From: Cyanidioschyzon merolae
Lineage: Eukaryota
NCBI GenBank assembly: GCA_000091205.1
Contig: AP006486.2
Length of the DNA: 64,000 bases
Reading direction: 5' to 3' (one strand)
Below the pieces are notes generated by a model. It did no database searches and had not been told where the DNA came from. It was given only the letters and a program-made list of their open reading frames with translations. Positions 5,600 to 60,052 of this stretch are shown in pieces (the first letter of the stretch is position 1; every line of letters begins with the position of its first letter). Position numbers and translations under genes: made by a program.

Positions 5600-7752
5600 T
5601 GATATATCAAGTATCTATCAGAGCGAAAGTTGCGGGTGGGCATGAGAAACCGTGCGTCGAGTCGTACTCCGTGAGTATCATAAAGGCTTCCTCAGGAATA
5701 ATGCTTTTGGTGAAGGCGATGTATCGCGACTTGACGCAGATCGAAACAGTCGAGGTTTCGGAGGAGGAATTTTTCGACAAGAGCTTTCATCGTCACCTGA
5801 TGCTTGGCACAGGGGAAGCGCGGAGCAAAAAATAAGTGAGTGCACGCCCTCCACGAACACCACGCCGAATACCGCTTCAGCGGTGCTCCATACAGGGGTG
5901 ACTCGCGAATTTACGAATACGCGGCGATGGAGTACCGCACGAACCTGAAGAATCACGTGGTCGTGAAACTCGAACGTTTCATGATACGCTCCATCTTTGC
6001 GTAGTATCCGGGCCTCTCTCGCAAAGGAATATGCGCGATCATCGACAGCATCACGAACGATTGTCAGCATGAACAGGAGATCGAATTCGTCGACAAGAAG
6101 GCGTCATATAGGAGAAGGAATGAGGTTTCTGTAATCCGCGCCACTATTGAAGAGAACCGTGCGGTCTTGGGGCCGGCGAATCCAGCAGAAAAGGTATCAG
6201 ATATGAAATAAACATGGAAAAAGATGTTATCCTTTAATTCTGCTCGATTTCGTATTTTTGGACCGAGAATCCGAACGCAAGGCGGAGATGAAGCTGAGTG
6301 AGGAAAAAATGAAGAGTGGGAGAGACGGAAGGCTGTCCGAATGGGGAAGCGCTTCAACGTCGTTCCAATGTGCAACATCAAGTCACATTTTGTGACTGTC
6401 GACTCCAGAATCCTTCATGACTTCATGAAAGAGATCAGTCCCGAGCTCAATGTTAGCAGGGAGGGGTTCTCCGGCGAAAACCGGGTGACGTTCTGCAAGA
6501 GAATCTTCGATTTCAAACGTCTCAATGTGAGCAAACAAGGGGTATTACTGGGATGATCGAAACCGATGTAGTGGCCATGTGTGTACACTAGCGGCGCTTG
6601 AAGAAAGATCGTCCAGTTCCGTCTGTGACGAAAGATGAAGATAAGAGGAAGGCGGATCCTGCGACACAGAAAGTTCAGGATAACTTTTTTGTCGTTGGCG
6701 CAGACCCTGGGAATACGAATATCATAACCATCGCTGTACCCAAACGTGCGGAAGATGGTACTGACGGCAACTTACGTCAGAAACACATACGTCTTTTGAG
6801 GTTCTCGAGAGCGAGATACTATCGAGAATCCGGTATAATGAATGCAAGGAAGAAAATTGATACGTGGAATGCAGGAATGAAGGATCACCTCGAAGTTTTG
6901 GGCGAGGTGACGAGTCGAGGAGCGGACTTTGAAGCTTTTCGGAAATTCATGGAAATACGCGTTGCTCATTGGGATGCCTTGTGGGAGGAGTGTACCAAGC
7001 CCCGGTGGGCTCGTTTGCGTATGAATCTGCACTGTGGGAAGCAGCGGGCGTTTGCCAACTTTTTCAATCAGTTGAGCGCTCTGAAGAGGAATGAAAGTCA
7101 GAGGCTCGTAGTAGCGTACGAAGCAGGGCGCTGGAAGACCCAAAAGGGGACCACGCCAGCCCCAACGATAAGAACGTACAAAGAGTGCGCAAGGCGTTTT
7201 GTTACGATACCTGTAGATGAGTTCCGAACGTCCTATACACATCACGAACTGGGGTGTACACTTCAGAGGGTCGAGATGGAAAGGTGCCAGCGGACCCCTG
7301 AGGATATCGCAAAGTATGGACCGCTGACGGAAGAGCAAATGGAAAGGATGGCGAAAGTTCGTGGACTGCTTGCATTAGGAAGCACCATCAATGGCAAGAA
7401 ACGTATGGAGTTTGTGAGCCGGGACTTTAACGCCGCGATCAATGTAACGATATGCGCAGCGATGGAAAGGAGACCTCCAGAGCTGAAACGAGAGAACTTT
7501 ACTGGACAATCACTCAAAGTCGAACTATATGAGAGAAAGTTGGAGGCAGTAGTCGCTGGCCCGCCGAGCAAGGCTGGGAGGCATCTGCACATCCGTTGGA
7601 GACTTCTTGTCCTGGGCGAGTTTCTCGCCACCACTGTACACTGCCGGCAGCAACGTTTTTTCTTTTGGAAGTTGTGTGTCGTCGTTCTGGCACTGGAATG
7701 GAGTTCATTCACGACGCCTTCGGACGAGGCGTACGTTCGTTATCCCACTTGA
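5600..7752 (+). pseudogene. TnpB/Fanzor-like RuvC nuclease gene (IS605 OrfB homologue), copy 1
   Basis: The C-terminal ORF 6598-7752 begins at TTG, not ATG. It contains Ruv[19 protein letters not shown], RuvC-II LVVAYEAGRW, the Zn-finger-adjacent motif PVDEFRTSYTHHELGC and RuvC-III SRDFNAAINV. The segment 5600-6597 is colinear with the intact N-terminal part of copy 2, but carries a frameshift near 6556, an in-frame TAG at 6589-6591 and further stops upstream. Confidence 0.7.
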
Positions 7753-10700
7753 ATATCCAGTGGGTGCGCACAAGGCGCTGAGCTGCTCCATTTTTTGTGT
7801 GCAGCGTGTTCAGATGATGCATGCTGCAGTTTTTCGATATTCATGCCTCAGGGTAACGCTGCGCAGCATGTCGACATCCTGTCTGAGGGCACGAAAAAGT
7901 CGGCAGCGTCGTTCGACGTGTTCAAAAGCTCGTGCCGCATCAAGTTACGGGCACCACACGATTCATAAATCCGCATCATTTCGTTGCCGTCGACGAAACC
8001 GCATGCGACATCCCCATCGTATTGCTCCGGGGATATGCAACCGGGCGTTTCCGTCTCTTCTGTTTCCATGGAAAAGGATCTCACACTCGGATTTCCCACA
8101 TTGCAGCAATCGCTTCCCATGGAGCATGCGTCACTGCTCTGCACGTTAGCAGCATCGACGGATCGAAGGTTATTGATGCGATCTCCGGTCTGGAGTTCGC
8201 TTCTGGATTTTGTCTCATCAGGATTGACATTGACTTTTACAAATCCCTTATTGAATGCGGTAGTGCGCGAATGCCCGATAACGTACTCGCCGAGGCAATC
8301 GCTCAGAAGAAGCAGGTCGTTTCAGGGTAAACCATTGGGTAAGGGAACCGAAGGCATCTACAGGGACCTCGCAAAAGCGTAAACGGTGCGATGAAACCAG
8401 TCTGAGCGCGCCACGGGCTGGTACTCGTAGCAAGTTGTATGGTCGGCGTACCGGACCACCTGACTGCATCCACGTGTCACCGCTGAGGAGGGCGCTCCAA
8501 AGCTGTCCACAAAGAGTACGAGAATGGCACGCAAGCCGTGTGTCGGAACTTTCGTCTGTGCAAGCAATGCGTCGTCAACGGACGTAAGCAGCGTGATCAT
8601 GAATTGACCGCTGTCATCATGATCATCATCATCCTTCGAATGCAGATCACGGAGCTCATGTAAAGGCTCAGACTGGCGTATTCGAAGCCCGAGCGAACCG
8701 AGTGAAACCGAAAGCAGTCACGGGAGAGATGTCCGCAAAGGCTGGTGCGAATTACAATTGGAAGAGACCCAAACTCCATCGTTTATGCCCGTATTCGAGG
8801 ACCTATTCCGTGTTATGCTGACATATGTCTAGTCGCTTTGTTGAACGTGAGACTAGTTAAGGGGTTCCAAGCGGTCTCAGCGCATGCATGCCCACAGGAG
8901 CGCGGCTCCACCTGCCTCGCTATTCCTGGAGAAAGCGCTGTCAAGCGAGTACGCTGACGGCTACGCGATCAGACAAGATGCCTCATACGCCGTCTCCATG
9001 AGGCGCTTCGCAGGATCCCCACGGGTGTCGGCTGCGTATGCAACTAGCGTTCAAATGCTTCACCGTTGTCTTTGAGGAATCAAGCAGTTCTACCGAGGTA
9101 AACGTCTTCGTGTATCTAAGTTCGTACCGCAAAATAGCCGCACAAATCCAGGTGTGGTAGCGACAGCTCCGCAATCATAGACGATAAAAAATGAGCATTG
9201 CCTTTTCTAATGAGGCATTTATCGACTCTGCCGCCAAGAGTCACTCGTGATCATGGACGCACGCTCACGAAGCCTTGCACATCGCATGTGAAGAACTCGT
9301 GCTGCGTCCCTTGGGCAAGGAAGCTGCAGGCTTTGCGTTCGAAAAGCCTCAGATTTGGCTATTGTTCAGTTGCCCCCTATCATAAAAACGCATTTCCATG
9401 GTGAACAAGAATATCCCGCCGCACATTGGAATCGATTTTTGTCGATTCCCTGACTTGGCGTTCGCACCGACTTCTCAGCCACAGTTGCCACTCCAGGCAT
9501 CGTCGCACTTGGTTACGGGATTTCTATGGACGACACCCATCGACGGACACCATGCCGAGTCCTATTCTCGATACACGAACCGCTACACCACCGGAACATG
9601 GTCATGCGTTCGTGAGCATGCAAGTGCAGGCATTGTGACCCGCGCATATGCGCCACGTTCCCAGTCAAGACGATTCGTTAGCGTCTATACATCTGCGAAT
9701 TTCGAACCACCACATATATTCCCCATAAAGAGCCGACTCGATCGCAGCGAGCACGCCTCGCAATGATCTCGCATTCACCAGCTTCGGCGTTTTGGCAGGA
9801 TGCTCCTGGTGTCGTGTTCGGCAGGGAGCGTAGATCAGGACAGGCGGTCTCATTTAGAGAAACGTACATGAATCTCTACGCTTTGCCAGGTTGGAATTGG
9901 ATCCGTACGGTTTCGGATGCAGCAAGAGTCGCAGCACAACCAGCCGATTCATGATGGTCAATGATCGGCAGTTTCCAGCCTTGGTCGCGTCGCTGATGCG
10001 CATTGGCAAGCGTTGTGTACGCCCCCGGTTGAAAAAGGTGCATCCGTAGACCGCGAAGATGCTGACACGGAAACGTAAACAAGGCCAGTAGGCATCAACT
10101 ATTGCTACTGGAATCATGGCACTTGAGAGAGCAGCGCATACCCGCTTCTGTGACTTGGTGCTTTGGGCGGAACCGCACTGTACGCACTTTCTGGGCTATT
10201 CGGGCCAATGAATATCGAAACAGAACATAAGATCCAGAAGAGCTCGTCGTGAAGGTGCTCAGTTCCAACCAGGTCAAGAGTCGCGGGAGCCGATGAATCG
10301 CATCAGAACTTGAGTCAGCAAGAACGTAGCGCAACTGCTCCAGCGTCGTCGCTAACCTTGTTTCACAGACTCCGTTTGCGACGTTGTGACAGCTTCGTAT
10401 CACGACTCCATACGTTGAGCAAAGAGCGTGCAGGTCTCGTGCTTGCGCTAGCGGAACGCACGAACTCGGCGATGACTCTTGCGGACGCCAGTCGCGAGTA
10501 TACAGTTGTCTTCCATCGCTCAGCACTGTCGTTCCTCCAGCGATGGAAACAAAAAACTCTCCTCAAACAAGAGCATCTGAAAGCTATCAACCTGGTTCCA
10601 AAAAAGTTCCACCAGAGAACCGTTTCATTGTATACCTTGTCTAAAACGTTCGACAACTCGCCCGTCAAGCGGCTCAGAGGCGAGCAACTCGTCTACGACA

Positions 10701-23315: not shown

Positions 23316-24343
23316 TCCAAACAAAACAAAGCATCGATCGCCACCGGAACTGCGTGCATCGCTGCGCGTTACCGTTATGCGTGCAACGCCTGGGTGCTGC
23401 ACGGCGGCGGCGCGCTGCAGATCGCCATGGCGATACGGCACGCTGGTGCCCCTCGATGGCGTAACGCCTTTGAACGCAACGGTGGTGGGCGGGACGCCGC
23501 CGCCGCCGCTGATGACGATGATGATGATGACGCCTCGGCGACGATCGCCATCGACACCGCGTTGCGCTGGAGCGCGCACTGCGCCCGCACAGCGGATGCG
23601 TTCGCGCGCCTGCGCGAAACTTGTGCAGCCGCGATATCGCAGCGGGGTAGTATCGGTGCGCCTGTGGGTGCGGTGTTCATGTCGGTCGTGCGAGCATGAG
23701 CGGAACGATGATGGTATGGGCGTGCTGGGAAAGCGTTTTGCGCGTTTCTACACTGTTTGAGATGAGCCTGGGACATCGACGTTCAGGCTATGTTCATGTT
23801 TTGAGATTATTTTCCGAAGGTTATCCTACGAACAATCGCGACAGTGCAAGTGCAGGTATCAGGGCTCACGGATACATGGGTCGATTTAGGATTCCCGGAG
23901 GTATTCTCAGAGTCTGTGCAACGGAGTGACGTCACAGGACTAGGTTAGGTCACCAGAATCAAGATGAGTTGTAAAGTCTTCGAAGAAGGGATCGGAAAAT
24001 AAGCGATATTTTTCACAGGTGCATACGTTTTTTTCTTCTTGGTCTCGCGCTTCACCTTTCCTGTGTGGAGCACGCGCTCAACATGCCTGCTGGAAGTTTT
24101 CGATCGTTCCATTTCAAGACAAGTCGTGGGTGCAAGGATTCGTTCAAATGTACCTATGAGGAAAAATATCTCGATAGGTATCCCGAAGGATTCGTTCAAA
24201 AGCTTTTACTGAAAAATTCACCGTATACGTCAAGTAACCGATTCCTTTCGAGACTTAAATCCTCGTCTTTTTATGGCCAATGGTGAAACGAGATTCTATA
24301 TCAGCTTGATCCTTGTTCGTGAGTACGCTCCTAGATGCTAATG

Positions 24344-24892
24344 TCAGTTCTGTAGGCGTAAAAAAGGGCGTCGGACTCGGACCTGCGTTATTCCTGCAGC
24401 GATCGCTTCCAATGACGAGTGCGTCACCACCGCGTCGCACCAAGGCAGCGTAAACAGGTCGGCATTTCTCGGCTTGTCCACGGGGCTGTATTTGCTTCCG
24501 GGGTCTCTTTTCATCAAGGGCAAGACCGCGTTCCACAACTCCTCCATATGTGGGGACAGCGTGGCCTTGTATGTGCTTCGGACATGGAACTTGACCATAG
24601 GATCGCCCAGAACAACACCACAATTGCTGGCTGCTGCGCTGGGCGCGGACGCAGAGAACGGCATCGAGTGGCGCCTGCGGTACCCATCCAGGGCAGACAG
24701 CGAGCTATGCAGCAAGCGGTCACGTGGTACAGTGCAGCCCGCGGACGAGGAGGAGAACCAGCAAGTCCAGTGGACAGCTGGGAATCCCTGGCAACAGCCA
24801 AGAGTTACCGCTGCGAGCGACGCACCGAGGCTGTACATCAAGAGGATGAAAAACGGAAAGCGGAGCGTAGACCCCAACTTTTGCTCGTGCAT
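24344..24892 (-). other. Third, most divergent copy of the ~800-bp repeat family that also occurs at 47290-48100 and 51286-52100. It carries an uninterrupted 182-codon ORF
   Basis: Nucleotide and peptide similarity: FPFFILLMYSLGASLAAVTLG compared with IFIFFVYSLGAPFAAVTSG and DILFSYGLGAPFTAVTLE. The downstream SSSS tract and the LSPHMEELW / VSPEMYRADLE segments also align. Confidence 0.4.
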
Positions 24893-26510
24893 TCAATGCA
24901 TCTCTGATAGCCGAGAACGACGATTTCGGGACTTGAACGGTGCCATCTGTAGCCTAGACGGATGACAACGGAGCTCAAAAAACATGAGAGACCTCTGCAT
25001 TTCAAGCTCGAGATACAATGGAGGAAAAGGAAGCAGTCGCAGAAATTCCCGAGTTGCTTCGGTTCATAACAGAGCAAGGATACGCAAACTTGTGGATACA
25101 CGTCTAAGTTACCCAAGCGTAACCGTTCGAAGTCATCCTCACATGGATGTCGTCAGGTCAGGGCTGCTGCGCAGGTTGTGCGTAGCGCCCGCAACCCTGT
25201 TTCTTCGGTAACCACAACGGTGAGCAGACCCATCACCCGAACTTTGCCCCGGTCATCGAGTTCCTTCAGCGCGTCTCGCTGTGACGGCAGCTGTATTGCT
25301 TGCGGAGTATGCTGGAACCGACGCCTCCAGGTGACGCTCGGAACAGCTATCCTTATCCGTTCCGTCGTTGTACGGCGTCTGCAGGAAGCTCCGCGCCTGG
25401 ACGGATGCTGCTTTGAACCGCCATGCCCAGGGCGAGTCTCAGACAGGCACTGGTGGCACGCGAAAGTGACCGGTAAAGCCGCTTTACTTTCGTCTCCGCG
25501 GGCACCTGCTGACGCTTACGCTTTTCACCATATAAACCCTCCGAAAACCGCCGATTGTGTTTCAGGGCAGGGTGCATCTTGTTGACCAGACGCGTCGGTT
25601 GCCCAAACGGTTCCAGTGATCGAAGCGAAAACCTGGTGTCCTCCGCAGACGCCTGGCCGCCAGTTGCGCCCATGAACGCATACACTTGACACCGTATCGC
25701 ATAGAACTCGTATGCTGCATACAAGGCGGTGCCACACGACTACCTGTCCGAGTGCTAGCGCCGTTCTTCAACACACAGCAGCAGGTGCGAAAGCGGGTCC
25801 ACGAGTCCAGCACTCCGCGCTAACAGAAACTCAGCTCGAGACTCTGAGAGAAACGCAACTTACGTACCAGAGTCTTGCACAGCATACAAGCGTCCGGACT
25901 GTAGAAACCTGATGTGTTTCAATTTCCGTCACTGTTGAGGCTGCAGAGGTCGCACGCACGGTCGTTGCGCTTTAGCACTACGAAACGCTCTGAGGGCCGC
26001 TCTGAGCACCGAGTCAGCACCTCAGTCTGTTGGTACTGAAGAGACGCTCTTGAAGCCGACTTGTGTGCGTCCTGCTTTCACAGGTACACACACAGGGCGC
26101 TATCGCTCTATCATGACCAGTTGCCTGGCGACGACCGCGAACGACACCAAAAGGTGCCACTCGTGCCACATAGGTACGACTCTGGGGTCAGCGTGCGAGC
26201 AAGTCGAACAGTGCACCGACTTGGACTCCGTACTCGAAACGCTGAGTACACTCATGAAGCGCACTGCTTGGCGAACGCGACGCCAACTGCCGAGCAGGTC
26301 ACCTGCTACACCACAAGGTTTTTCTTCGGCATCGTGCACGACACATGAAGGCGTTTGATGTCCACGAACGTGTTTAGAGAATTGCCACCCACACATGACA
26401 CGACAACCATACGCACTACAGCATCGCCGCTGCCGCTGTTATCGTTATCATCATCGTTGTTGTCGTTCTACGCGTTGCCGCATCCGCTAGCACCCGCTTC
26501 CATATAAACT

Positions 26511-31167: not shown

Positions 31168-31370
31168 ACACGCATCGACACGCATTCGCACGCATTAGCA
31201 CGCATTAGCACGCATTAGCACGCATTAGCACGCACCAGCAGGAATCGACACGCATCGACACGCAACAGTAGGCATCAGCACGCACCAGTAGACAACAACA
31301 CGTACCAGTAGGCATCGACACGCAACAGTAGACAACAACACGTACCAGTAGGCATCGACAGGCAACATTG
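31168..31370. repeat. Compound minisatellite: (cacgcattag)x5 followed by ~40-bp units (cgcaacagtagacaacaacacgtaccagtaggcatcgaca)
   Basis: Direct read. It lies ~370-570 bp upstream of the COPA start codon, in the COPA 5' intergenic region. Confidence 0.9.
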
Positions 31371-32627
31371 CTATGCGTACGGCACGCACCGCTGCGTTTG
31401 CTGCACATCAGGAGCAAGCTGGCCGACCTGAGCGGTGACGGATGTACGCGGAGCACAAAAATGAGTGCTGTGTTCCTGTATAAAGATTTTTTTCGAACTT
31501 TCATAGACGAAAAGTCATGAAAAACCTAGTGCAGAAAAAAAGACGGACGGATTCATTTGTAGTTCAGAGATTCTCGGTCGACTCTTTGCAGGAGCTCCTT
31601 TACCGTCAGATGGCTAGGATTCTTTACGGAATCGGGATCAAGATGATTTGCGACGCTACTCTCCTAGAGGGTCCTAAAATAAACGATAGCGTTATCCAGC
31701 GCATGCGTACAAGCCTCCAACTGTGTTCTTTCCATGCCTGTAGCAAGCTCATACCATGCAAGCTTCAAGTTATCAATCTTTCTGTTTCGGGCAACGCCTG
31801 TGTAGAGCAATTTGAGCAGCTGCATTGACGACGAAGAAAACCTCAACGTCAACTCTTGTGGGCTGTTTCACAAGATCATGCCGAAAGCTCAGTGAACTTA
31901 CCATGTTAAGCAATTGATTCCGTTCGTTAAACAAATCTACCAATCTTTATGGGTGGCGGCGAAACGGCATTCCGCTGCAGCGCGACATTTCGTAGAGGAT
32001 GGGCTCCCGGAGCCTTCCGTCTCTTCTGTTCGCATGGAATCATACAAATGACCGCAGTTCAGCAGTACGCGCTCCAGGTATCCGCACGCCAGCGATCTTC
32101 GCAACTGGGGCGAAGAGTGCTCCCCGCATACACCATGCGTATGCGCTGTGTTCTTGCGGGTCCATATGTGTGTCGTGTCGTTTATAGGATCCGGGGAACT
32201 TGCGGTTGTGCGCAATGGTTATCGGCAGCAGGGAGATCGTACGTTCTTCCATGGACCCGAAATGCGGCGACCACGACAACCACCGACACTTCCACGATCT
32301 TGCTCAGTTACCTCGATCCTCCTGGTGTCGTACGTCCGCCGGTGACACCCGCTAAGACGTTTACTCGCTTGTCTGGTGACCTGATTCCGCAGACAGGAAA
32401 CTGATTCCCCAGATACGGCGTCGTTGATAGTCTGGTACACATTCGACGCATCCGCGGACTAGCTGTACATCACAAGGGGGCGCGTTCAGGAGCCCCTGGT
32501 GTATCCAGTGTCACAGGCGATTCACATCACGATCAGAGCGGCATCCAGAGAAGCAGATCATGATCACATCGATTCCAATACTTGTTTACACGTGCAGTCT
32601 CGTACTAGTCTCGTCAAGATGAAGCAC

Positions 32628-41354: not shown

Positions 41355-41500
41355 ATTCACGCACGCACTGGTCGTTTCGTATGCTCTATGTGTCGCCAAG
41401 TGCCTGGCGTGAGCGCCCGCAATAGCGCCTATAGCACCGGTGTAGTCGTAGCTCGGATAAAGGATGACTATGCCGTGCACCGGAGAGTGTCGGCTTGAGA
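41355..41500 (+). repeat. Dispersed non-coding repeat, copy B (solo copy, 150-300 bp upstream of the separase start codon)
   Basis: Aligns to copy A, 5183-5350: cactggtcgtttcgtatgctctatgtgtcgccaagtgcctgg...tagcgcctatagc...gtgtcggcttgagagg. Confidence 0.65.
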
Positions 41501-44500
41501 GGATAAACTGATACACATTCAGAGACGCTTCCCAGCCGTTTTCGATCGGCCGACTGCCACCGGCTTCAGTTGCTCTTTGCACCATTCGAGCCTGAGAGGC
41601 TGCCCTACAAAGCTGGATTGCTTCAGCACCGCGTGTCTCGTCGTCAGCACCACATGTCGTCTGATCCTGATGGTGGTATTGAAGTCTTTGTTCACGAACT
41701 CCATGCGTTAGTTGCCACTAGTTGAATTCATCAATGCACGGATTCCTTGAAATCTTACCTTCTGTACCTCTGCAGGCTTGTCATCGTCAATTCGGGCAAA
41801 CACGTTTAAGCGACTGTCTCCCTTCTTCTCCGTCTTCTACGTTACCTGCTCTTCTTCTCGAAATGGTCGGAGAGAAGAGGATATTTTGGTTTCTTTGTTG
41901 AACCCGGTGTTGATTGCCCTCCGGGATTCCCGACTTATATGTCCCCAAGTTTTTCTCACATTTCTTATTTCTTCAAATGAAAGCACTTTTTGATGGCCTT
42001 CAGATGTGGACCTTACCCGACGAAGAAGGGCATGGAGAGGAAAGACGACACGTGCCCCCGTTTGTCACCGTGCCCCAGAAGCTTCAGCGATTCTCCCAGT
42101 TGAGCAGTGATTACGTTTCACGACAGAAAACTCTCCTTCGATGGGGTTGAATCACGTAGAGTGCGGAGGAATGCAAAACAGCTCTAGCCTGATGGAATTG
42201 GCAAAAGCTCGAACGCAACCGGAGTAGTGAAATGCCACGATGGCCAGTGAAGGGACCTCGCCAGACGTCAGGGGAAAGTCTTCAATGATTCGACGCAGTG
42301 GTTGATGCCATTATATGAGCCATCTCTACGAGCAAAATCTCGGGCGGCCAAATGAATCCGCTGCCGCCCGAACAAATGATGTCATCGTTCTCTGCGAGTT
42401 CGATCGTGCATACAACAGGCACCCCGCTCCGCGAATACCTGTACAGGTTACCATCGGATCGTCCGAGGGGAAGTTCATTGACTGGAAAAACAAACCGACG
42501 TTTCCGTGCTTCATACCGATCGCAACGTGCCTGCAACGCCATAATTTTGATTTCCGTCGAAGATGGCTGTGCATGCACTCGGACTTTCTTTTGCGACTAT
42601 ATCCCAGCGTTTTACGGGACCATACGAACAGGCTGCTGGGTACCGGTGACGCCCATGTCGACTCCTATTGTCGCATTTGCGTTCCATTAGGTAATCAACC
42701 GATCGCTTTCTATTCTTGAACGCAAACACGTTTTAAGAATATCGGGTTTTGGCGCGGAACGCATCACCTTCTTTCTTTAAATGTTCCTGAGCCATTCGGG
42801 TAATGTGTTATAACTGACCTGGAGGAGGAATGCAGTCCTCCTTGCACAGCTCAGTACAGAATCTATCTTAAATTCAATTCATCTACGATCTATACAGTAC
42901 ATGGCGACGTGATTTCAACCTCCTGCTATACACCCCAGCGGATGCGAAACAACATTGAGTTGAATGACTTTAAAACCCGGATGCATCGGCACCGCCAGCC
43001 TCCAAAGAAGCGATCAGCGCTCTGTTGCAGACGCGTGTACGTTCCGACTGTACTGGACCATTCTTGGCTTCGGGCGCAGCAGCTCGATCGATCCGAAGAC
43101 CTGTTGGGTAGCGAGTCTGCCTTTGGCGCTGGATTCGCCGGGTCTCGCTCGCGCAGGCAGAGCGCATAGACATGCAGGCGATGCGATACATCTACACACG
43201 TCGTTTCACGGTGCATGTGTCCTATGGATAGAAGCATCGCTCACGCGCCTGCTGGATCCGCGCTGCTGGTGAAGTTCGGCAAGGTTCCGCGAATCACGCG
43301 TTCAGAGTAACACTGGACAGGGGTCCGCCTGGAAGGCATTTTCAGCCCAGACGGATTTCTTCGTGCCTCTGGACGTGTGTGCAGTCTCATGTATGTGGTC
43401 GTTCAGTTGCGTCGAGTATACACTGCGGAATGGGGTTTTTTGGCGGCGGTCCATCGCGAGTAAGAGTAAGTCGCGTTGCCGCTAGGTATATCGGTATGCG
43501 TTTCTGGGCGTTTGGAAATGATGCTGGAGGCATTGAACCGATTCCCCAGAACACGCCCTACTGAAATTCAATGAGTTGTTCAGTACCCCGAGATACAAGC
43601 TGGCATGGCGATGACTTCATTGCAAACGCCCCGGCAACCGATGCAAATTGGCGTCCGCGCACAAGCTGTGCATGGAGGCAAGCTCCGGAGTCGATCGACC
43701 GACACAACTTGAAGAAGTAGGCGGGCACCCCAAAGCACACGTTTACGTGTGGCGCACCATCGGAATCAAGAATGATATGCTTTAACGGCGCGTAGGCCCG
43801 GGCTGCTTCTCGAGCCGACGGACGCGCGCGGACAAGCGGTCGATGCCGCAACTGCTTCCACAGGCACAAATAGATTTACGCGCTGATGTACATGCCGCCC
43901 ATTTGCACAGAAGGATCATCCCATGCGACAGACTCAGCTCTTCTTACTGCTTGTTTCTCGAGAAAATCTTTTGCTGTTACAGCACCGACGCTTCCCTGAC
44001 TCGCGATACCGCGTTCATGTGCATCCTCGGGGTATCACACGGGAGCACGGTATCGCGGTCGTCTTGGGTGCAGCGCGCATGAAGTCGTCCGACTCAAGCG
44101 CAGGCAAGAAGCAAGCAACAACTGCCGACGCTGCGCCCGCGTGCAACCCTCTGCGTCCCCGGCTCTGCCAGGGCCAAATCTTGACAACCACACAACTGAA
44201 CTATATGCAGGCGAAAAAAATCCTGTTCCTTCCTTTGAACAAACACCGCCGTCACTCTGAATTTGGCCGCAAATGAGCTCCAGGCGAGCCCCGAGCGCCC
44301 CTCATGCTGCAGCGAAGCGCACTTTCAGGGTCACCAACCGGCGATCATGTTCCTCGATCAACGGAACGTTTACACTGACCAGTCATCTCCGAGTGCGTGC
44401 TGTGGGTATCGGGAGCCTGACAGGCACCAGGCACGCTGCCGCAGGACCCAACCATAGGGGACAAAGCACATTCGTACTTGTCCTCGGCACTTTCCGACGC

Positions 44501-46634: not shown

Positions 46635-47289
46635 GTCCCAGACGTTACGCAGTTCGGCGCTTTGTAGCGGCTCGCAGCTCCACCTGGCTCGTGGAGCACG
46701 CACCGAACAACGGAAGCGCCCAGCACACCTGCCTCACCAGAACGCACTCGTCAACGCCCCAGAAGAAAAGTTTTCTATGAACTTTTGGTTGCAGGAATTG
46801 CGGTTGAAGCCGTCTATGCAGTTAGTCTAGAAAACTCGTCTGCTCGGTTCGGAAAACGCAACGCTCAAATGATAATGTGGATTTGTGGTGCATACAAAGG
46901 CCAGATGATGCATAACACATCAGAAGGATGGCCTGCGCTTGTGCCCAATGAAAGCAGCATACAGACCTGCTCGCCTTGCTCTTGCCATAATGTTATTCTC
47001 CAAACGATTTCTAGATGTGCGTCCTCGACATTCCAAGTGCAGGAATAAGGGCTTGCGGATGCGTATGTGGTTCAGGGATTCTCAGTTGGGTTTTTTTCGG
47101 AGTGGCTACTTCGATGATTTGCCACTGGAATTGGCGACCACACCTGTATCAAGATTATTCGAACCGCGTTCAGACAAGGGATCGTGCAATACCCGAAGTC
47201 ATTAACTGATTCATATCCAGAGACCTGTACGCTTCTCCTGTCCATTCGTGTACCATGATCAAATAATATAGTCTTTACGCGTTAGTTGG

Positions 47290-48100
47290 TTATGTTTCAA
47301 GGCGACTTGAGGGCGCCGCCATTCGCGTCATCGGCTTGAAGACGAAAGATATTCTGCGCCATTCCTTGACGATTTCATCACAAGTTCATGCCGAAAGTTC
47401 GATGAACTTTTCAAGTCAAATAATCGATTTTGTTCGCGGGATAAAATCACCTTTTTTCTATCTATGGAACGGCATTCGAGGTCTGCACGATACATCTCAG
47501 GGGATACGCGCCCCCGGAGGCACCCGTCTCTTGCGCTTGCATGGAAAATGCGCCGTGGACAATGACCTGACTCATCGCAGCGATCGCTTCGAGTGGAGCG
47601 AGCGTCACCGCGCAGCATGATGGATGCTGAGACGGATCGAAAGTTCTCAACTTGCTCTCCATTCTGGGTTCTCTTTCCGATACTTATTTGATCACGGACA
47701 ACATCGCGATCCACAAATCCTTTATCGAATGGAACAGAATATGCTTCGCTACGCAGCATTCAGAGCACCCGCCGAGTTGCTCGTACAGAAGAACCTAATG
47801 ATCGTAGGGTATATCACCGGGCACTGAAACGGAGAAGGGTATCGAGGTGAGCATTCCGTGCCGGGCCCGGGTACGAACGAAAGATCAGGCCGGCGTTGAA
47901 GCGCCACCGGGCGGCGCTCAGCGGATGATGATGAGGAGCAGGTTCCTTGGTCACATGGGAACACCTGACGACTCTCGAGTGTTACAGCTGTGAAAGGCGC
48001 ACCGAGGCCGTATGAAAACAAGATGTCATGGTTAACCGAAGCGTAGATGCCAACTTCTGCCTCCGCATGAAAGCCGTCGACAGCAACCGCAAGCAACGAT
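47290..48100 (-). repeat. Left arm of a ~800-bp inverted repeat pair, repeat-family copy 1; shows frameshift-interrupted coding potential
   Basis: Aligns at ~75-80% with the reverse complement of 51286-52100. Shared peptides are ...LGAPF(T/A)AVT... and F(D/E)KGFV(D/E)R..V.D.ISIG. It is read in several frames. Confidence 0.75.
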
Positions 48101-48429
48101 GCCTGAACTTTAACCCTGACATCAAGAGCCCTCGACTGCTAACAACGGAACCTGAGCGAGAGGAGAATCCGGCGTGTAGAAAGCCGGAGATAACACAGAG
48201 GAAAAGGAAGGCGTCACAGAGTAAGCCCGCACAAGCTGGTGTTGCTTACACTCTGAAAGGCCCTGGACTTGAGTGTATGCGGTCGAGTTCATGGACATAT
48301 CTGGTTTGAGGCTGGTGTGAATGTGAGCCCCAGCTCGACGCTGATTCCCGTCGGCTGCGCAGACATCGGTACGACAACTCCGCACAAGAATTCTAGATTC
48401 TAGAGCGCTCGACCGACGTGGTAACGGAT

Positions 48430-48693
48430 ATGTTGGTGCGAGTCCTGTTGTTTGCGGCCTGTCGCAGGGCTGTAGAGAACAAAGACTCGATCGTCGTAGA
48501 GGTGCCTGCTGAACTAGACAACGACGGCCGCGAGTACTGTACTGTGGAGACGCTAAGGAAGCGCCTCCCAGAGGTGTTGCAGAAACTCGCTGCTCACTCG
48601 GCGGTCGCAGTGAATCTTGAGTATGCGGAAGCGTGGCAACGAGTTTACAGCCAGGATGAAGTTGCGCTGATTCCTCCTGTTAGCGGTGGCTAG
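48430..48693 (+). CDS. MOCS2A: Molybdopterin synthase sulfur-carrier subunit MoaD/MOCS2A
   Basis: 87 aa: MLVRVLLFAACRRAVENKDSIVVEVPAE...CTVETLRKRL...AVAVNLEYAEAWQRVYSQDEVALIPPVSGG. It is colinear with bacterial MoaD (MIKVLFFAQVRELVG...TVEALRQHM...DEVAFFPPVTGG), including the terminal Gly-Gly. The ATG is at 48430. The ORF track starts at GTG 48418. Confidence 0.8.
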   Translation: MLVRVLLFAACRRAVENKDSIVVEVPAELDNDGREYCTVETLRKRLPEVLQKLAAHSAVAVNLEYAEAWQRVYSQDEVALIPPVSGG

Positions 48694-51285
48694 CCGCAGC
48701 TGCCGAGGCTTGGCCTCCTCCGCAAAACAATCAGCCTGAACCACGTGTTCTATCAACTTGAGATGGGCCAGAACTGGTGCCCAAAGCCTTGGTCGTCGAG
48801 TTCAACGTCCAGAAGCGAAAACAGCTGCAGCCTGCCTCCCTGTCTTTTGCCGAGCTACGCGGGTATCTTTTCATGAGTGCGCTTTCACAGGGCAACTCCG
48901 ATATGGGAAACATCGCGGTACCTTTCACTGTCACTGGGGTTCTGTGCTTCCTGCTTCGATGATTACCAGGACGAGTGCCATAGCTCGCTCTGGTTGTTTC
49001 CAGAAACCGTGCTCATGTCGAGCCGAATGTCTTTTTCCCAGTAACGTGCCATACAGGCTCCGGGTCTCATTCGGTTATCCGCTTGAAACAGAGCACCCAT
49101 GAACCGATTCTAGCGTGTCTCGAGCTCGACGCGCACACACGCTGGAGATAAAGCAACGCACTGGCACACGGAATCGTTGACAGGAGCCGTACCCAGTTAG
49201 AAAAAGCGCAATGCCTACGCTCTCTCTACATCTCGTTCTCTACCGTATTCCATAGGCACGAGCGACGCCTCATGTCCGAGCAATATCACGGTGGTAGGTG
49301 CCCGGGAACCGACTGCAAACGCTCGTATGCGCGGAAGCGTGCGCGCTCAGCATCGCTGGTGACGCTGACAACCCAGCCACTCTTTACAAACGATCCAGAA
49401 TTCCCGTCCTGATGGATTCGCTTTTAGACATCTTTTTCATCATCTGTATTCGCATGAAATTGCCTGAAAGAAAGGACTGCACCATGTAGCGTTCATGATG
49501 CATCGCCCGCCATTGCCGAGCATCGCACATGTCGTGCATCAAGCGAAGGATCCATGATTTGTTCTGTTTCCGCATTGGCCGCCTCATCGCGGCAAGCATG
49601 AGACGATGTCGTTACTCGCCTGGGCCGATCGAGCCATCGAGATCTATCTAATGCTCTTTACGAGAATCTGCGGGCGGTAGCGAAGCTGTCTGCAGCGAGT
49701 TCGACCAAGACTTCTTACGCGCCAAAGATGCCATGCGCCTGGCGCACGCTCGTGCACTGGCGCTTCGCAACGACTGCGCATTCCGAATAACCCAGTATCG
49801 CTTTGGATCGGGTAAGACGCTTTCGTTGTCATCTCCGGATGCCAGAAACGTTTTCCCCTGGAGAATCGGGACTCGAGGCATACCCCAAGGTCTGTTTGGC
49901 CAGCGTTTATGGAAATACACGCCAAGTCGGCTGGTGGCACATCTTCGACTGCCGATTTCTCATCTGTGAACGTACTTGCTTCGCGCGCGGTATTCGGGCG
50001 GGGATCCCCTGAAACGATGAACTTTTCAGGACCGCAGACTTCACCTTGCATCCTGCAGAGCGTCGAATCGATTGTGGTGTCGGCACGTCCCTGCTGCCTC
50101 CATTCCTAATAAACGCCAGATCGATCGCTTGCGAGCCGTCGCTCCGCTGGAGGTGTCGCGTCGACGCTGACTTGGGCTTATCGCAGCGAAAGCGTTTCGA
50201 GTCATTCGCACTCGCGCCATCAAAGCCGCACTTGCATATCTTGTTGAGGAGTTTCAAACGGCTCTACAACAGCCGCAGGAACAAAGCGACGTTCACGCGA
50301 GAATCTGTTCCGTTGCCTGTAACCGGGTACATCTACGCAGTGCTCGGTTCCTGTTGCTAGATTCCTCTTTTCTCGCGGCCTATGATTGATGGAACGAATC
50401 AGACTGCCCTGTATGCAGGAACGCTGTCGCTTATCAGGTCTACCGTTTTGCTTCTTTCGAAGAAGCGTCCATGCTCTGCGCTCACCGAAGCAGCATGTCC
50501 GTATGCAACAACTGCTCGTTCGATCGAGCGATGCCGCGGCTACGAGCCTGCCTCTGACGCTTGCCGCAATACCGGACGCGCTGTACAGATACAGGACAGC
50601 GGCGTTATCCCTTCGAGGGTGTAGGCACCAGGGTCCACAATGCGGTGCTTCAGGCACCGTCTGTCGTGAGCCTGTCCGGGGCCCAGTGCCCGAACAGTGA
50701 CGCATACCTCATGATGTGTTGGCGATATGTGTACCCAGAAGCTGATGGGTACGTGCTCGCCATCGACAAATCAGTGACGCGTACGCGCGGATGCATAGAT
50801 TCGGAGGTGGAGGATCGTAGAATTGAACCAGAGATCCCCGATTGTTTGATGAAGATCGGCATCTGGAAAAGCGTCCATCAACCAGTGGCGTTCTTCGAAA
50901 CTCCGCCAGCCACCCGCCACTGACGCTTTCCTTTGGAGACCTATATCAGTTCGGGCGATGCCCCAGGCACCGTGCCTGCCCTGAGCGTCCGCTACGACGC
51001 CTACGGCGCCGGTGCAGAAGCCGCACGATTCACGACGATCGGTGTTCGGATGCGGATAAACCCATGGCAGACTAGAATGGAACGGGTGCACGTACCCAAC
51101 TGGGGCTAAGACTCTAAAATTTGGGTCTCTTCCCATTGTCGTCTGCAACAGCCTTTTCAGGCTTGTTCTGCTACTAATTCCCCTTCGCCTCTCTTAGCTC
51201 CGGCTTTCATGACGCTGGAATTTCCTTTCCCGAAGCTCCGTTTCCAATAGTCGATGCATGCTGATGAAAGGGCTACAGTCCCAGT

Positions 51286-52100
51286 TTGCAGCTTCCGGCC
51301 GCTGTTGATCTATTTCGCTTACATGCGAAAATTGGGATCTACGACTTGCTTGTCATTTTCATCTTCTTTGTATACAGCCTCGGTGCGCCATTTGCAGCGG
51401 TGACCAGTGGCAATTTTCCGGCTTGTTTAATTGTGTCCACCAGATCTCCTCCTCCGAGGGATGCTCTGTGGTGCGTGAACGCTCTCTTCATCGCTCGATG
51501 CATGACCTTCGCGGTGAAAGAAGGTTCGCGCTGATACCCTCCTTTACTTCAGCGCCGCCGGCTGTCGTGACACGACCATCGCGGGCCATTTCTGTGCGAT
51601 TCTGTCGGCGAGCACGCTGTCCGCTACCCGCGCAAGCAAACGCTGTTTCCTTTGAGAAAGGATTTGTGGAACGCGGTGCTGTCCACGATGACATAAGCAT
51701 CGGATGCGGACACCCAGGCTGGTACCCAAGGTAAGATATTTCGATCCGTTTACGCTCCCTTTGCGCAAACAGGTGACGTACGGCACATTAGATGCTTTCG
51801 CTGCGAGGACTGACGACCGAGTTAACGATCCTTATTCATGCAATGAGAAAAGACGGGCGCTTCTTGGAGCATATCTCTCAAGCGGCACCATGAAACTGTC
51901 GACTATTGTCTCGTCGACAGCCATCAAGATAAGACGACTTGACCTTCGAGCGAAGTCGATTATTTGACGTGACATGTTCCATGAAATCTCGATCTGAGCT
52001 TGTGAACAAGTCGTCAAGGCAGCATGTCGCATTTTCTTTCACGTCCATAGAACAGCGGCGCGAATGGCTGCGCCCACGACTTGTCGTGAAACAAGAAATC
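51286..52100 (+). repeat. Right arm of the ~800-bp inverted repeat pair, repeat-family copy 2
   Basis: Partner of 47290-48100 on the opposite strand. The two arms are head-to-head and 3.2 kb apart. The spacer contains MoaD. Confidence 0.75.
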
Positions 52101-53039
52101 GGGAGACCTTCAAGAATGCGTTATTTGAGCGCACTACCCCCGGAGAAAGGAGAAAAACAGTGGGAGCGTGTATGAATTCGTTGGGTAATGATTACCTTGG
52201 ATTCTGAAACCGTTTTGAAGGTTTTACAAATCATCTTGATTCCGGTGACGTGATGGGTGCCACCACGGGCGAGGCGTCGAGAGCGCCTCACCGAATGAGC
52301 GACCTATAATCCTATATCTACGTATGTATCCTCTATCTCTTATGACTACACGTCGGTTGACGATGCCGAACATCTGAACCAGAGTCCGGAAAGTAAGCCC
52401 AAGGCAAGGGTAAAGCGCACATTTCGTGCTCTTTTTCTTGCATTGGATAGGCAAGTAGCGTGGCGATGCGGAAACGTGTGCATCGGACGGGCACCAAATT
52501 TGCCTCCATGCACGGATTGCCCGTGAGGCAGCGTTGTGCGTGCGTGCCTGCGTGCGGTGGTGACGTGTCCGTCCCGCGAACACGCATCGGCGGAGCGTCG
52601 ACGCTGCTCCAACAGCGTTTGCGGGCGAACGCTCTAGTTCTTCACAGCGTCAGTCAGTGTGTTTGCTTGTGTTTGTGTGCGCGCGTAGCCAGCAGCAAGG
52701 AACCCGAGTTTGCTCGATAGGCTATTCTGCTGGGCGACGTGGCTGAAGCCAGTATTTCTCTGCGTCAGCGTGTCCCTTGCACACGAGCCGGCTGCAGGTC
52801 GCAACACGGAACGCTCGCAACACCGTAATAGCCTTTCGCACCGAGTCTGGGAAAGCGAACCTCGAAGCTTTTGCATCAAGAGGAATCGCTGGGCAGGCGC
52901 TGGACTACGCGTGGGCGGGTTTGTTCTGGCTGGTACCTGTGGAAGCACGCCTGAACACTTCGAGCAGTTTCTCCTTCTATAGGTAGTTGTATTTGCTCTT
53001 CGCGCTCTGTTGGCCGTTCCCTCGCTCTCCAGCGTCTAA

Positions 53040-56863: not shown

Positions 56864-59520
56864 CTACTGCTCGTCTAGCCCGCTCGCACCAGCGCCATCA
56901 TTCGCCTGTTTCTGTTGCTGTCTGTCTCGTTTCCCTGGACGACTGTGTTGCTTTGCGTTCATCATCGTAAAGTAGAGACTGTAGACAGACTCTCGTTCCG
57001 CCGCACTAGCTGCTGCGTTTCCGCTCAGGTTAACACGTCTGCCGGGTGGACCACGAGGAACACGTTTCCGGTGCAAACGCGCATATTCCAAGTTGCGCAG
57101 CCGCTTCTCTTCCCGCAAGTCACGCCGTTGACGCATGAAGACTGACAGTGCTGCAGTGCCCGCCGAAGGGTACGGAGCACTGGAACGCTGCCTCGTTTCC
57201 ACTGCAGTTAATTTCTTCGAAGACGAAAGGAAAGCATATGAAGAATCTTTCGAAAAAGAAAGAGGTTTGAGTGATGAGATAAACATGACGTTCGATGGGT
57301 ACTTGGGAACGCCGCAACGCCACGAAACGACACCAAACGCCTTGCAGAAGAAAAACACTGCCGTGAGTGGTATTGTAGTGACGACGAACGCGTCTTGGAC
57401 AAACCATCTCCTGCTGACGGGCAGACGCCTCGCCGCCGTTCTCGACCGGCCACCCACGACTGGTTTCAACTTTTTCTCATATAGTTCTACTTTGAGAGGT
57501 TGTCCAACAAAATTCTATCTCGTCCACTCTGGAAGTCTATTCTCCAGCACCGCACATCTCCTTGTATTGATAGCGGCATTAATGTCTCGGTTCACAAACT
57601 CCATCCGTTTCTTGCCATCGTCGGTTGTACTTAATAATGCGAGTAGTCCACGAACTTTCGCTCTCCTTTCCATTTGCTCCTCCGTCAACGGTCCGTGCTT
57701 TGCTATTTCCTCAGGGCTCCGCTAATACGTTTCCATCTGGACCCTCTGGAGTGTACACCCCAGTTCATGGTGTGTATACGATGTTCGGAAGTCATCTACG
57801 GGCATCGTAACGAAACGCCGTGCGCACTCCTTGCACGTTTTTGTCGTTGGAGCTGGTGTAATGCCTTTTTTCGACGCCCAGCGCCCTGCTCCGTACGCTA
57901 CTACGAGCCTCTGACTTTCATTCTCCCTCCGGGCGCTCAACTGATTGAAAAAGTTCGAGAACGCCCGCTGCTTCCCACAACAGAAATTCATACGCAAACG
58001 AGCCCACCGGGGCTTGGTGGATTCTTTCCACAGGGCATCCCAATGAGCAGCGCGAACTTCCATGAACTCCCGAAATGCTTCAAAGTCGGTTCCTCGGCTC
58101 GTCACCTCGCTCAAAGCTTCCAGGTGATCCCTCACTCCTGAATTCCATCCAACGATTTTCATCCTCGCATTCATTATACCGGATTCCCGGTAATATCTAG
58201 CTCTTGACAACCTCAGCAGACGCTTGTCTTTATGACGTCAATTGTCGTCGACACTATCTTCCGCACGCTTGGGTACAGCGATGGTTATGATATTTGTGTT
58301 TCCGGGGTCCGCGCCAACGACAAAGCCGTTATCGTGCGCTTTCTGTGTTGCACGATCCACCTCCTTCTTTTCTCGATGCTTCGCCGCGCCAACGACAAAG
58401 CCGTTATCGTGCACTTCGTGTGTCGCAGGATCCTCCTTCTTCGTACCTTCATCCTTCGCCACGGGCGGAGCTGGACGATCTGTCTTCAAGCGCCGATAGT
58501 GTACAGACATGGCTACTCCATCGCTTTCGATCATCCCAGTGAATACCTTTCGCTTGCTCACTTTCAGACGTTTGAAATCGGCGAAATTCTTCTTCCAGTG
58601 CGTCTCCCGGCTTTCGCCGGAGAACTCCTCCCTGCTGACATGGAACTCGGGACTGATCTCCCTCATGATGCCGTAAAGGACGCCTGAATCGATAGTCACG
58701 AAATGTGACCTGATGTTGCACATTGGAACCACGTTGAAGCGCTTCCCCATTAGGAAAGCCTTCCGCCTCTCCCACTCCTCATTTGTCTCCTCATTCAGCT
58801 TCATTTCCGCCTTGCGTTCCAGCTCTCCGTCCAGAAACACGAAATAGCGCAGGGCGAGGCGATAGTATCTTTCCTTATCTTTTTTCGACTCTGATATCTT
58901 GTCTGTTGGACTCAGCAGCCCCAGTGCCGCACGGTGCTCTTCTACAACCGCACGGATGACAGAAGCTTCATTCGTGCTCTCGTTTGACGCCTTGTCTCCG
59001 ACGAATTCGATCTCCTGTTCATGCTGGCGATCGTTCGTGACGCCATTGGTAATCGCCCATTTTCCTTTGCGAGCGATGCCAGGGTACAGCGCAAACACGG
59101 CGCGTATCATGAAGCGTTCGAGGTTCATAGTCAAATGGTTCTTCAGGTTCGTGATGTACTTCATCGCTCCGTATGTGTAAATGCACCAGTCAATTTTGTA
59201 TCGAGTACCGTCGAAGCTCTAAAAGGGATGTTTTTCGTGGAGGGCATGCACTAGCACACTTTCCCTCGGCGCTTCCGCTGCACCAAGCATCAGCTGTCGA
59301 ATAAAGGTCTTATCGAGAAACCCGTCCGGAATCCCGACCGTTTCCACCTGCGCCACGTCGCGATACATCTCCCTCGCCATATGCATCAGTCCTGACGACG
59401 CCTTGACAATACTCTTGGAGTATGACGCAACACTGTTTTCGATAGCGTCTCGCAGCTTTTCCCTGTACGGATCCTTGATATGTTTAAGAAGACAGACTTT
59501 GACGACCTACTTGTCGCACA
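56864..59520 (-). pseudogene. TnpB/Fanzor-like RuvC nuclease gene, copy 2. It is colinear over ~880 codons with no frameshifts, but has three in-frame stops
   Basis: Minus-strand translation is colinear with copy 1 across the N-terminal region, RuvC-I ([18 protein letters not shown]), the Zn-finger and RuvC-III (NRDINAAIN). Stops are TGA at 58238-58240, TAG at 57722-57724 and TAG at ~57515-57517, where copy 1 has Leu (TTA), Gln (CAG) and Glu (GAG). RuvC-II reads LVVAYGAGRW, so the catalytic Glu is replaced by Gly. There is an internal 20-codon tandem duplication near [18 protein letters not shown]. Confidence 0.65.
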
Positions 59521-60052
59521 GTCGTCTTTCGTGCCGCCTTCGACGCAGAGCGTCCCCCTTTCAGTCCTTCTTCTCTTCCTTTTCTTCTGGACTTGGCACT
59601 GTTTTTCTGTTTTTTCTGGCAGCCAGCGACACTGGGCCTCCAGGATCGTCGACTTGCTTTTCATAACTTCCTTTTTTTGTTTTTTTGGAAAACAACGCTC
59701 CCTCCAACGCCTCTGATATAAACAGCGAGGAAAACTTGAATAAACCAAACTGAGGGTTGAAATATAACTGAACTGAAAAGTACACTCTGCTATGACTTTA
59801 ACGCAAATGCAACTTGTACTTGAGAGCAACACGCTCAAGATCGCGATCCCGTTTCCCTTCAACGGCGAGACGCGTCGCGTTAGTTGACTGCCCGATCTCC
59901 CAGATGCGCCCACCGAGCGCGATTCTTTTTTTTCATGGACAAAACGTGTGCATAGGCCAGTGCTCTCGGATTATGCGCATTTTTCTTTTCTTTCTCTTTT
60001 ATTTTGTGTTTAACTTCAGTGCGCGGTAATGTATCTATAAAGCCCCCTCCCT

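Follow-up and report, generated by a model that had tools for sequence, protein, structure and literature searches.

Repeats on either side of a red algal MoaD gene are probably separate, decayed insertions of a transposon with a transposase-derived head and a Fanzor1-derived tail

The stretch of DNA under study (64,000 nt, referred to as a whole as the window, and the basis of all positions given here) carries a ThiS/MoaD gene with similar sequences, in inverted orientation, on either side of it. A preliminary description of these two sequences, here called armL and armR, took them for a pair of ~800 bp and left two explanations standing: a small gene family with one intact member, or arms resembling terminal inverted repeats (TIRs) of one non-autonomous element that had captured the MoaD locus. 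What the arms are, and whether their arrangement around MoaD has a meaning, is the question raised by this locus. The evidence indicates that each arm, like the related copies near 24, 8 and 31.5 kb, is probably an independent ancient insertion of a ~1.39-kb non-autonomous transposon with a transposase head and a Fanzor1 tail.

The inverted similarity of the arms is far beyond chance (46945-48289 against 51098-52446, blastn E 8e-90), and both also align with 23778-25044 in blastn and MAFFT alignments. While this part of the first account stands, the length, identity, copy number, orientation and pair status assigned to the arms do not. A family hidden Markov model (HMM) extends the homologous unit from ~800 to ~1,400 bp. 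Identity within the originally delimited parts is 63% over aligned columns, or 69% without gaps, rather than 75-80%, and 46 of the 47 gaps there are not multiples of three. The window holds five members instead of three, the two additional ones being truncated. The arms do not form a specific pair either, as armL and armR are 58% identical and the mean among full-length copies is likewise 58% (range 51-63%). The sense strand of armL is the plus strand, opposite to the orientation first given, and if each arm is read in the direction of the element, armL (+) and armR (-) face one another rather than away. All copies in the window have the same outer limits, at which homology ends, and no shared homology was found in the flanks of distinct copies. 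The truncated copies lack opposite ends, the left end being gone in the 8-kb copy and the right end in the 31.5-kb copy. The copies and their parts are as follows.

46930..48325, plus strand: armL, full-length decayed copy (HMM positions 3-1387; 1164 bits in nhmmer with the 15-copy HMM)
46933..46959, plus strand: degenerate left TIR of armL, mapped from the aligned consensus
47015..47714, plus strand: transposase remnant of armL, IS630/Tc1-mariner type, with the helix-turn-helix (HTH) region and the first two catalytic Asp of the DDE domain
47714..48315, plus strand: Fanzor1 remnant of armL, C-terminal ~200 codons with RuvC-II region, zinc ribbon and RuvC-III
48297..48323, plus strand: right TIR of armL, overlapping the stop codon on the consensus
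51055..52459, minus strand: armR, full-length decayed copy (HMM positions 3-1389; 1115 bits, nhmmer)
52430..52456, minus strand: left TIR of armR
51666..52373, minus strand: transposase remnant of armR
51067..51666, minus strand: Fanzor remnant of armR
51059..51085, minus strand: right TIR of armR
23743..25153, plus strand: third copy, full length (HMM positions 2-1389; 1055 bits, nhmmer)
24344..24892, minus strand: ORF182, an antisense open reading frame (ORF) across the transposase/Fanzor junction (~24536) of the third copy
7690..8833, plus strand: fourth copy (HMM positions 210-1389), first ~210 nt gone, adjoining a copy of a second repeat family that ends at 7686
31425..32039, plus strand: fifth copy, left 620 nt only, comprising the left TIR and transposase-like part

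The family also occurs outside the window. A metagenome scan with an 18-base pattern, which follows the family consensus in its best conserved block, returned 40 loci. In 19 of them nhmmer finds the element, and these reduce to ten distinct copies or fragments, all new and all of the same organism. Several of the scanned loci carry a second copy in their flanks. Each of four known copies misses the pattern by exactly one base, which kept their orthologues from crowding the result. An absence of homologues elsewhere in the genome had been named as an argument against a mobile element; the ten further copies and fragments favour mobility, and a non-autonomous DNA element with an origin of its own is, in general terms, the right idea. 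The low G+C content put forward for such an origin is a matter of the repeats themselves: the value of 0.505 is the copies' own, while the 2.4 kb between MoaD and armR has 0.555, as other intergenic DNA does. The observed spacing is one copy per 13-25 kb, and 18 fixed bases should match only ~1% of copies ~77% identical to the consensus. Pattern expectation and spacing, as opposed to a count, together suggest several hundred copies per genome. Scans of the window with Rfam (gathering thresholds) and for tRNAs gave nothing.

The consensus, built from 15 copies, is 1,390 nt long and contains an ORF of 429 codons, which runs antisense to ORF182. It ends in TIRs of 27 bp, CTAC(G/A)CCC(G/A)TGTCAGA..AAAATGGAA, of which 23 of 27 positions are complementary. 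Their alignment score is 19, compared with 7.1 ± 1.3 (maximum 12) in 500 shuffles. Both 27-bp TIRs are present in each of the two arms, and on the consensus the stop codon of the Fanzor-like frame lies inside the right TIR. The dinucleotide TA stands next to both ends of the consensus, but in individual copies it is present in only about half.

Fanzor proteins are eukaryotic, TnpB-like, RNA-guided nucleases, and the right-hand part of the consensus resembles them closely. The C-terminal part of the 429-codon ORF runs ...KKPVIVGYGIGRGNGGGHRGEPSVPVKGMYRAMKQAF...VDTREHLTTAKCHRCEG...RLCMKCVDNSRKQRNRDFNAAINILR, and the consensus reads ...PVIVGYG...VDTREHLTTAKCHRCEG-x17-RLCMKCVDNSRKQRNRDFNAAINIL, carrying E-TT-x-x-CxxC...CxxC...RDFNAAINI. 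The Fanzor/TnpB signature consists of [TS][TS]-x-x-C4 zinc finger-x(5,50)-RD, with a conserved G and E that are specific to Fanzor1 (Bao & Jurka 2013, PMC3627910), and the consensus shows this Fanzor1 C-terminal signature. In Pfam, PF07282 (Cas12f1-like TNB, formerly OrfB_Zn_ribbon) matches the consensus with 29.6 bits against a cutoff of 26.3 (E 8e-7). With hhalign, consensus residues 234-388 align to a profile of six intact relatives at 57% identity (E 6.6e-45), and the homology begins at consensus nt ~787-796 (hhalign profile; ~796 in the nhmmer DNA comparison). The same homology can be seen in individual copies by tblastn, where Fanzor relatives match the third copy at 24551-24947 (+) and the intact Fanzor P0020 matches armR at 51435-51645 (-; E 9e-6). 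The plus-strand ORF 48028-48309 of armL still reads VDANFCLRMKAVDSNRKQRCLNFNPDI, and plus-strand ORFs of the third copy read ...KRSVDPNFCSCIQCISDSRERRFRDLNGAICSL. An exact look-up of the 143-aa ORF of armL returned no result, and a PDB search with the six-sequence profile found no match. For RuvC-I, the aspartate of which is expected in the same reading frame, 125-275 residues upstream of the TT motif, a weak SLDD-LFTSS match in the long frame is all that the consensus offers, and it lies beyond the reach of the profile alignment.

Intact proteins retrieved with the consensus protein are 512-760 aa long and belong to a family of 701 representatives at 50% clustering. Across 52 of these relatives, the D of GxDxGR, the G, the E, the TT, the four Cys and the RD are invariant, and their RuvC-I motif is GLDPGRVNL. 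A profile of the 52 matches Fanzor1 of Parasitella parasitica (9cf0, E 4.5e-16) and SpuFz1 of Spizellomyces punctatus (8gkh, E 4e-15), and more weakly the mimivirus TnpB-like protein L79, TnpB and Cas12f. The homology of the consensus to the intact relatives, combined with the relatives' match to solved Fanzor1 structures, identifies the right-hand ~600 nt by homology as the 3' end of a Fanzor1 gene, corresponding to its last ~200 codons. No working nuclease is encoded by these copies, since the N-terminal two thirds of Fanzor1 are absent and stops and frameshifts occur in 15 of 15 copies. The copies are relics of a Fanzor gene, with no working members among them.

The intact relatives also share the ends of the element. 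On contig L069, an intact 760-aa Fanzor1 gene lies between 30-nt inverted repeats (252-281 and 2812-2841, 83% complementary), and these share homology with the TIRs of the window family. The right-hand one also occurs 3' of the Fanzor genes on L067 (~12354-12380) and L068 (~7258-7284), and the intact genes with such repeats on the three contigs encode 551-760 aa. Just upstream of the intact gene on L067 there is also a truncated relic of a Fanzor C-terminus (9524-9958). The contigs with intact relatives are compact, and the neighbouring genes encode Peptidase_S74, ATG8, a UvrD helicase, an RNA ligase and similar proteins.

The left-hand part of the consensus is of another kind. DDE_3 (PF13358) matches it in Pfam with 35.5 bits against a cutoff of 28.6 (E 1e-8), in a frame other than that of the 429-codon ORF and with frames joined across an A8 run. 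Two disjoint six-copy consensuses were rebuilt as a guard against a misleading consensus, and DDE_3 is found in both (E 5e-7 and 3.6e-6), whereas the long-ORF frame of this region has no Pfam match in either. There is a weak match to HTH_Tnp_Tc3_2 in the N-terminal part (E 0.05). The match covers positions 3-97/116 of the 146 of the DDE_3 profile and includes the first two catalytic Asp only; the third catalytic residue is gone, and would lie beyond the junction with the Fanzor part. A stretch reading 'YSP..NP.E' was considered as the third DDE residue and rejected, being Fanzor-homologous in the other frame. A phmmer search of PDB with the transposase-like peptide found no match. By domain homology, the left ~790 nt can probably be assigned to a gene for a DDE transposase of IS630/Tc1-mariner type, with a putative HTH region included.

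The proposed history begins with a master copy in which the 5' two thirds of an IS630/Tc1-mariner-type transposase gene would have been joined to the 3' third of a Fanzor1 gene. Most simply, this would have come about by internal deletion, or by recombination between elements with the same TIRs, and the parent would have been an element with the layout TIR-transposase/Fanzor1-TIR. A matching DDE transposase recognizing the shared repeats may have mobilized the copies in trans, with amplification in one old burst followed by neutral decay. The near-equal, star-like pairwise identities (51-63%) fit a single burst. Today the copies encode nothing functional, and they have lengthened intergenic spacers, as between DnaJ and MoaD (from ~340 bp to 1.7 kb).

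Several observations weigh against this account. The consensus protein alone has no match in PDB (phmmer) or NCBIfam, DDE_3 is significant in the consensuses only and in none of the individual decayed copies, and the analysis turned up no autonomous partner in which the transposase is intact. There is an uncertainty of 2-4 nt in the exact termini, and similarity may run 2-4 nt past the TA, which affects its reading as a target-site duplication. Empty-site polymorphism was not seen among 10 strain contigs, as 10 of 10 carry both arms. Likewise no transposase gene adjoins the intact Fanzor genes on L067-L069. A viral source for the element is suggested by gene content alone, from which the contigs of the intact relatives look viral; large DNA viruses dominate the virus community of red-algal mats in Yellowstone (PMC11003980). 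Finally, the 429-codon frame of the consensus is open through the transposase-like part, and a weak collinear Fanzor match in tblastn reaches upstream to nt 442 in this long frame. If a transposase head was joined to a Fanzor tail, the open frame must be a coincidence or a property of the master copy.

The last two points lead to the main alternative, in which the element is a decayed miniature gene of Fanzor/TnpB size, with 429 codons in one frame bounded by TIRs and no transposase part, and in which DDE_3 is spurious or an overprinting relic. The consensus and both half-set consensuses do keep this frame open, or nearly so, for ~430 codons, and a stop shared by both half-sets (TRT*VIA) interrupts the other frame. 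In tblastn the intact relative P0019 is collinear from just past its RuvC-I motif (NLYTTA against DLFTSS) to the C-terminus, and the distance from this point to the TT-x-x-C motif fits the spacing in Fanzor. However, the upstream match is only ~20% identical with many gaps, and homology in hhalign and nhmmer begins only at nt ~787-796. DDE_3 is above the Pfam cutoff and replicated in disjoint sets of copies, while the long-ORF frame yields nothing, and intact relatives have ~500 residues ahead of RuvC-I where ~115 are available here. A miniature Fanzor gene is thus considered unlikely, although it is the strongest competitor of a transposase-Fanzor1 chimera. A more speculative scenario, regarded as decidedly doubtful, makes the element a hitch-hiker, either guide-RNA-only or mini-Fanzor, that came from giant viruses of red algae in hot springs and depended in trans on a DDE transposase and a full-length Fanzor. 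In TnpB and Fanzor systems the guide RNAs are encoded at the 3' end of the nuclease gene, together with the transposon end next to it. The element might then have spread because it kept this guide-RNA-encoding module, that is, the 3' end of the nuclease gene with the right TIR; or the 429-codon frame of the master copy might have made a working chimeric or miniature protein. The predicted RNA fold of the 3' 250 nt is no better than that of shuffles (z = -1.13). Some other origins were dropped. A kinetoplastid or SIDER-like retroposon, suggested by the long intronless ORFs, was abandoned once the neighbouring Sec1 protein matched Cyanidiococcus. Retroposition in general, suggested by a copy with a missing 5' part and by poly(A), was rejected on three grounds: TIRs bound the element, the poly(A) is that of a host transcript reading through on the other strand, and the truncated copies lack opposite ends. 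Solo long terminal repeats were rejected in the absence of direct-repeat partners and because protein homology spans the unit.

The reading as a gene family rests on ORF182. An uninterrupted 182-codon ORF is indeed present in the ~24-kb copy, and it is intact in 16 of 16 variants of its protein cluster, which has 9 variable residues. This uniformity is an ascertainment effect, because the cluster can only contain intact versions. Mismatches between copies are spread over the ORF182 codon positions at 0.38/0.38/0.42, with no bias, and the similarity between copies is about as high outside the ORF as inside, continuing at the same level for ~250 nt upstream and ~600 nt downstream. Codon usage was scored as a log-likelihood trained on the large genes of the window, with four small ORFs left out of training. 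These held-out ORFs (DnaJ, MoaD and two unannotated ORFs) score +0.09 to +0.11, while every repeat ORF scores ~-0.05, equal to obviously spurious ORFs. In eleven other contigs covering the third copy, ORF182 has 5 non-synonymous and 2 synonymous segregating sites, at a density of 0.013 compared with 0.0145 at third codon positions. ORF182 has no Pfam domain, and no homologue outside its own cluster (≥90% identity) was found among 5.8 billion proteins. The peptides noted earlier as shared between the copies are real, but theirs is the non-coding, antisense strand of the ancestral gene; the significant protein homologies are on the strand opposite to ORF182. A protein alignment of the copies centred on ORF182 was abandoned as too messy because of frameshifts. 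In 10 strain-level contigs covering both arms, stop codons segregate in the arm ORFs and MoaD is invariant; the two arms show a polymorphism of 0.020 and 0.034 per site, compared with 0.020 for intergenic DNA elsewhere and 0.012 for third codon positions. Transcript-like contigs give some reason to think of an expressed member, as a poly(A) run lies ~100 nt past the stop codon of ORF182. Taking the lack of codon bias, the non-genic usage, the segregating stops and the ancestral frame on the opposite strand together, a small and possibly multi-exon family of coding genes, with one member intact and expressed and the rest pseudogenes, is very improbable.

The transcript-like contigs themselves (L011-L016) run from upstream of a WD40 gene (26511-30884, minus strand) through the third copy on the minus strand, several of them stopping inside it. 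One of them, L014, ends in a non-templated A15 run at 24246, with a minus-strand span of 24187-24246 within the element. They suggest that the WD40 gene has a ~2.3-kb 3' untranslated region running antisense through the third copy, so that at least one copy appears to be transcribed passively inside the untranslated region of a neighbour.

The capture of MoaD between the arms of one composite or non-autonomous element, which would have moved the locus, has in its favour that the arms are inverted and bracket the gene. It can be assessed from gene order in related algae. The host is an uncultured, almost intron-free cyanidiophycean red alga of hot springs, and the window shows long uninterrupted ORFs on both strands, with spacers of 1-3 kb. 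The 1,030-aa Sec1-family protein encoded beside armR is 53% identical to that of Cyanidiococcus yangmingshanensis and 51% identical to that of a second cyanidiophycean; 99% identity was reached with metagenome proteins only, and an exact look-up of this ORF gave no result. The G+C content, lack of introns and spacer lengths fit the Cyanidioschyzon/Cyanidiococcus group, the genome features of which are summarized in PMC13353863. The window shares the gene order Separase ... DnaJ(-) ThiS/MoaD(+) Sec1(+) with both C. yangmingshanensis (L002) and the second relative (L003-L005). Between DnaJ and MoaD the two relatives have spacers of 381 and 335 bp, compared with 1,727 bp in the window, where armL is separated by ~240 bp from DnaJ and by ~100 bp from MoaD. 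The spacer in the window thus equals the ancestral ~340 bp plus one 1.4-kb insertion, and MoaD is at its ancestral site and was not captured. When the family was compared with the syntenic loci of the two relatives (blastn and nhmmer; 70 kb of the relatives' DNA), only the MoaD coding sequence matched. The comparison of the locus in relatives proposed in the preliminary description thus finds the arms absent and the gene order kept. In addition, each arm has both of its own TIRs, the similarity of arm to arm is no higher than to any other copy, and the enclosed 2.4 kb is unique and of ordinary intergenic composition. Capture is accordingly barely credible, and the head-to-head arrangement around MoaD is a coincidence of two separate insertions. 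The 2.4 kb from MoaD to armR (48694-51053) holds no convincing gene and no repeat match; the MoaD-Sec1 spacer of the relatives measures 1.7-2.3 kb.

Elements of this general kind are known. Fanzor1 has been described in Tc1/mariner elements and in other elements bounded by TIRs, among them SPu-1 of Spizellomyces punctatus, with TIRs, putative TA duplications and 17 copies (Bao & Jurka 2013, PMC3627910). The window family resembles these in its ~30-bp TIRs, in a Fanzor1 ORF that reaches the right end and in its IS630/Tc1-mariner signature. The intact relative on L069 matches the layout of SPu-1 exactly, as TIR, single Fanzor1 ORF and TIR in ~2.6 kb. Unlike SPu-1, the window family retains only the last ~200 Fanzor1 codons, has a transposase fragment joined to them, occurs at far higher density and is dead in all copies seen. 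A closer parallel by host is CMe-1A of Cyanidioschyzon merolae, with ~150 old Fanzor1-related copies ~80% identical to their consensus; it is ~3 kb long, was reported without TIRs and keeps intact Fanzor1 in some copies, and a shorter derivative family, TE-N2_CMe, shares one of its ends (PMC3627910). By published description, which is the basis of this comparison, the window family likewise consists of old Fanzor1-related repeats in a cyanidiophycean genome, but it differs from CMe-1A in its length of 1.39 kb, clear TIRs, DDE_3 remnant and absence of an intact copy. No homologue of the window family was detectable in 23 kb of the related species (L003-L005).

The family can also be compared with miniature inverted-repeat transposable elements, the internal-deletion derivatives of Tc1/mariner and IS630 transposons. 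As in these, the TIRs are kept and coding capacity is lost, and the proposed burst in trans and neutral decay would be alike; typical representatives are shorter than 1.39 kb, and their interior does not join two different genes. Bacterial IS200/IS605 derivatives that consist of TnpB only or of omega-RNA similarly keep the nuclease gene's 3' end along with the end of the transposon that borders it. In the window family, however, the fold result gives no evidence of a guide RNA, and the TIRs are of DDE type rather than IS605 hairpins. Since Fanzor1 in TIR elements and CMe-1A are already on record, the kind of element is a known one and the new points are modest. They are the TIR sequence common to fossils in the host and intact genes on virus-like contigs, a DDE_3 remnant that points to the mobilizing enzyme, a chimera of transposase head and Fanzor tail as the amplified form, and high density in a type of genome held to be repeat-poor.

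Approximately 10% of the window, and probably a comparable share of the intergenic DNA of this alga, would consist of a fossil Fanzor1/IS630-type transposon. Cyanidiophyceae have tiny, repeat-poor genomes, in which differences in size have been attributed to intergenic length (PMC13353863), and the family offers a concrete mechanism for the growth of spacers in one cyanidiophycean lineage. Small ORFs such as ORF182, which metagenome pipelines record as 'hypothetical protein', would be antisense artefacts. The DDE_3 remnant provides a lead to a partner transposase of IS630/Tc1-mariner type, and the intact 500-760-aa Fanzor1 candidates, which have defined ends and possibly come from thermoacidophilic settings, can be tested as nucleases.

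Other repeats occur in and near the window. A second Fanzor-like family is represented at 5590-7686 (plus strand, with ORF 6592-7752) and 57326-59495 (minus strand, with ORFs including 58238-59164), the copies being 2.18 kb long and 76% identical. Its protein, GADPGNTNI ... VDEFRTSYTHHELGC ... SRDFNAAINV, differs from that of the main family and is better preserved, with a gene-like codon usage (+0.09) in one copy. Comparison with the Fanzor1 family by hhalign gives a probability of 96.9% and an E of 1.6e-10. At 7686/7690 one copy meets the main family's fourth, truncated member. Remoter Fanzor-like remnants are found with the 6592-7752 ORF in tblastn at 570-1331 (+) and 41522-41800 (-), with E values of 9e-21 and 5e-10 and 29-32% identity, and the Fanzor-related relics in the window number at least nine. 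The final ~370 nt of the second family (57326-57696), comprising the Fanzor C-terminus and the downstream end, recur elsewhere at 61-74% identity, beside main-family copies in L036, L037, L058/L056, L059 and L060. They may form a short derivative family, or the neighbourhood may be a preferred one.

Another dispersed repeat is short (140-200 bp, 68-71% identical) and is present at 5165-5358, 41357-41495 and 60035-60232; a copy also occurs in L036. Simple arrays lie at 17290-17680, 31169-31367 and 23285-23316. They comprise a 52-bp tandem array of 7.5 copies in the convergent spacer and GC-rich, microsatellite-like arrays just upstream of the start codons of the WD40 and CLASP genes; those upstream of the two genes are the source of most indel differences between strain contigs at 18.9-34 kb.

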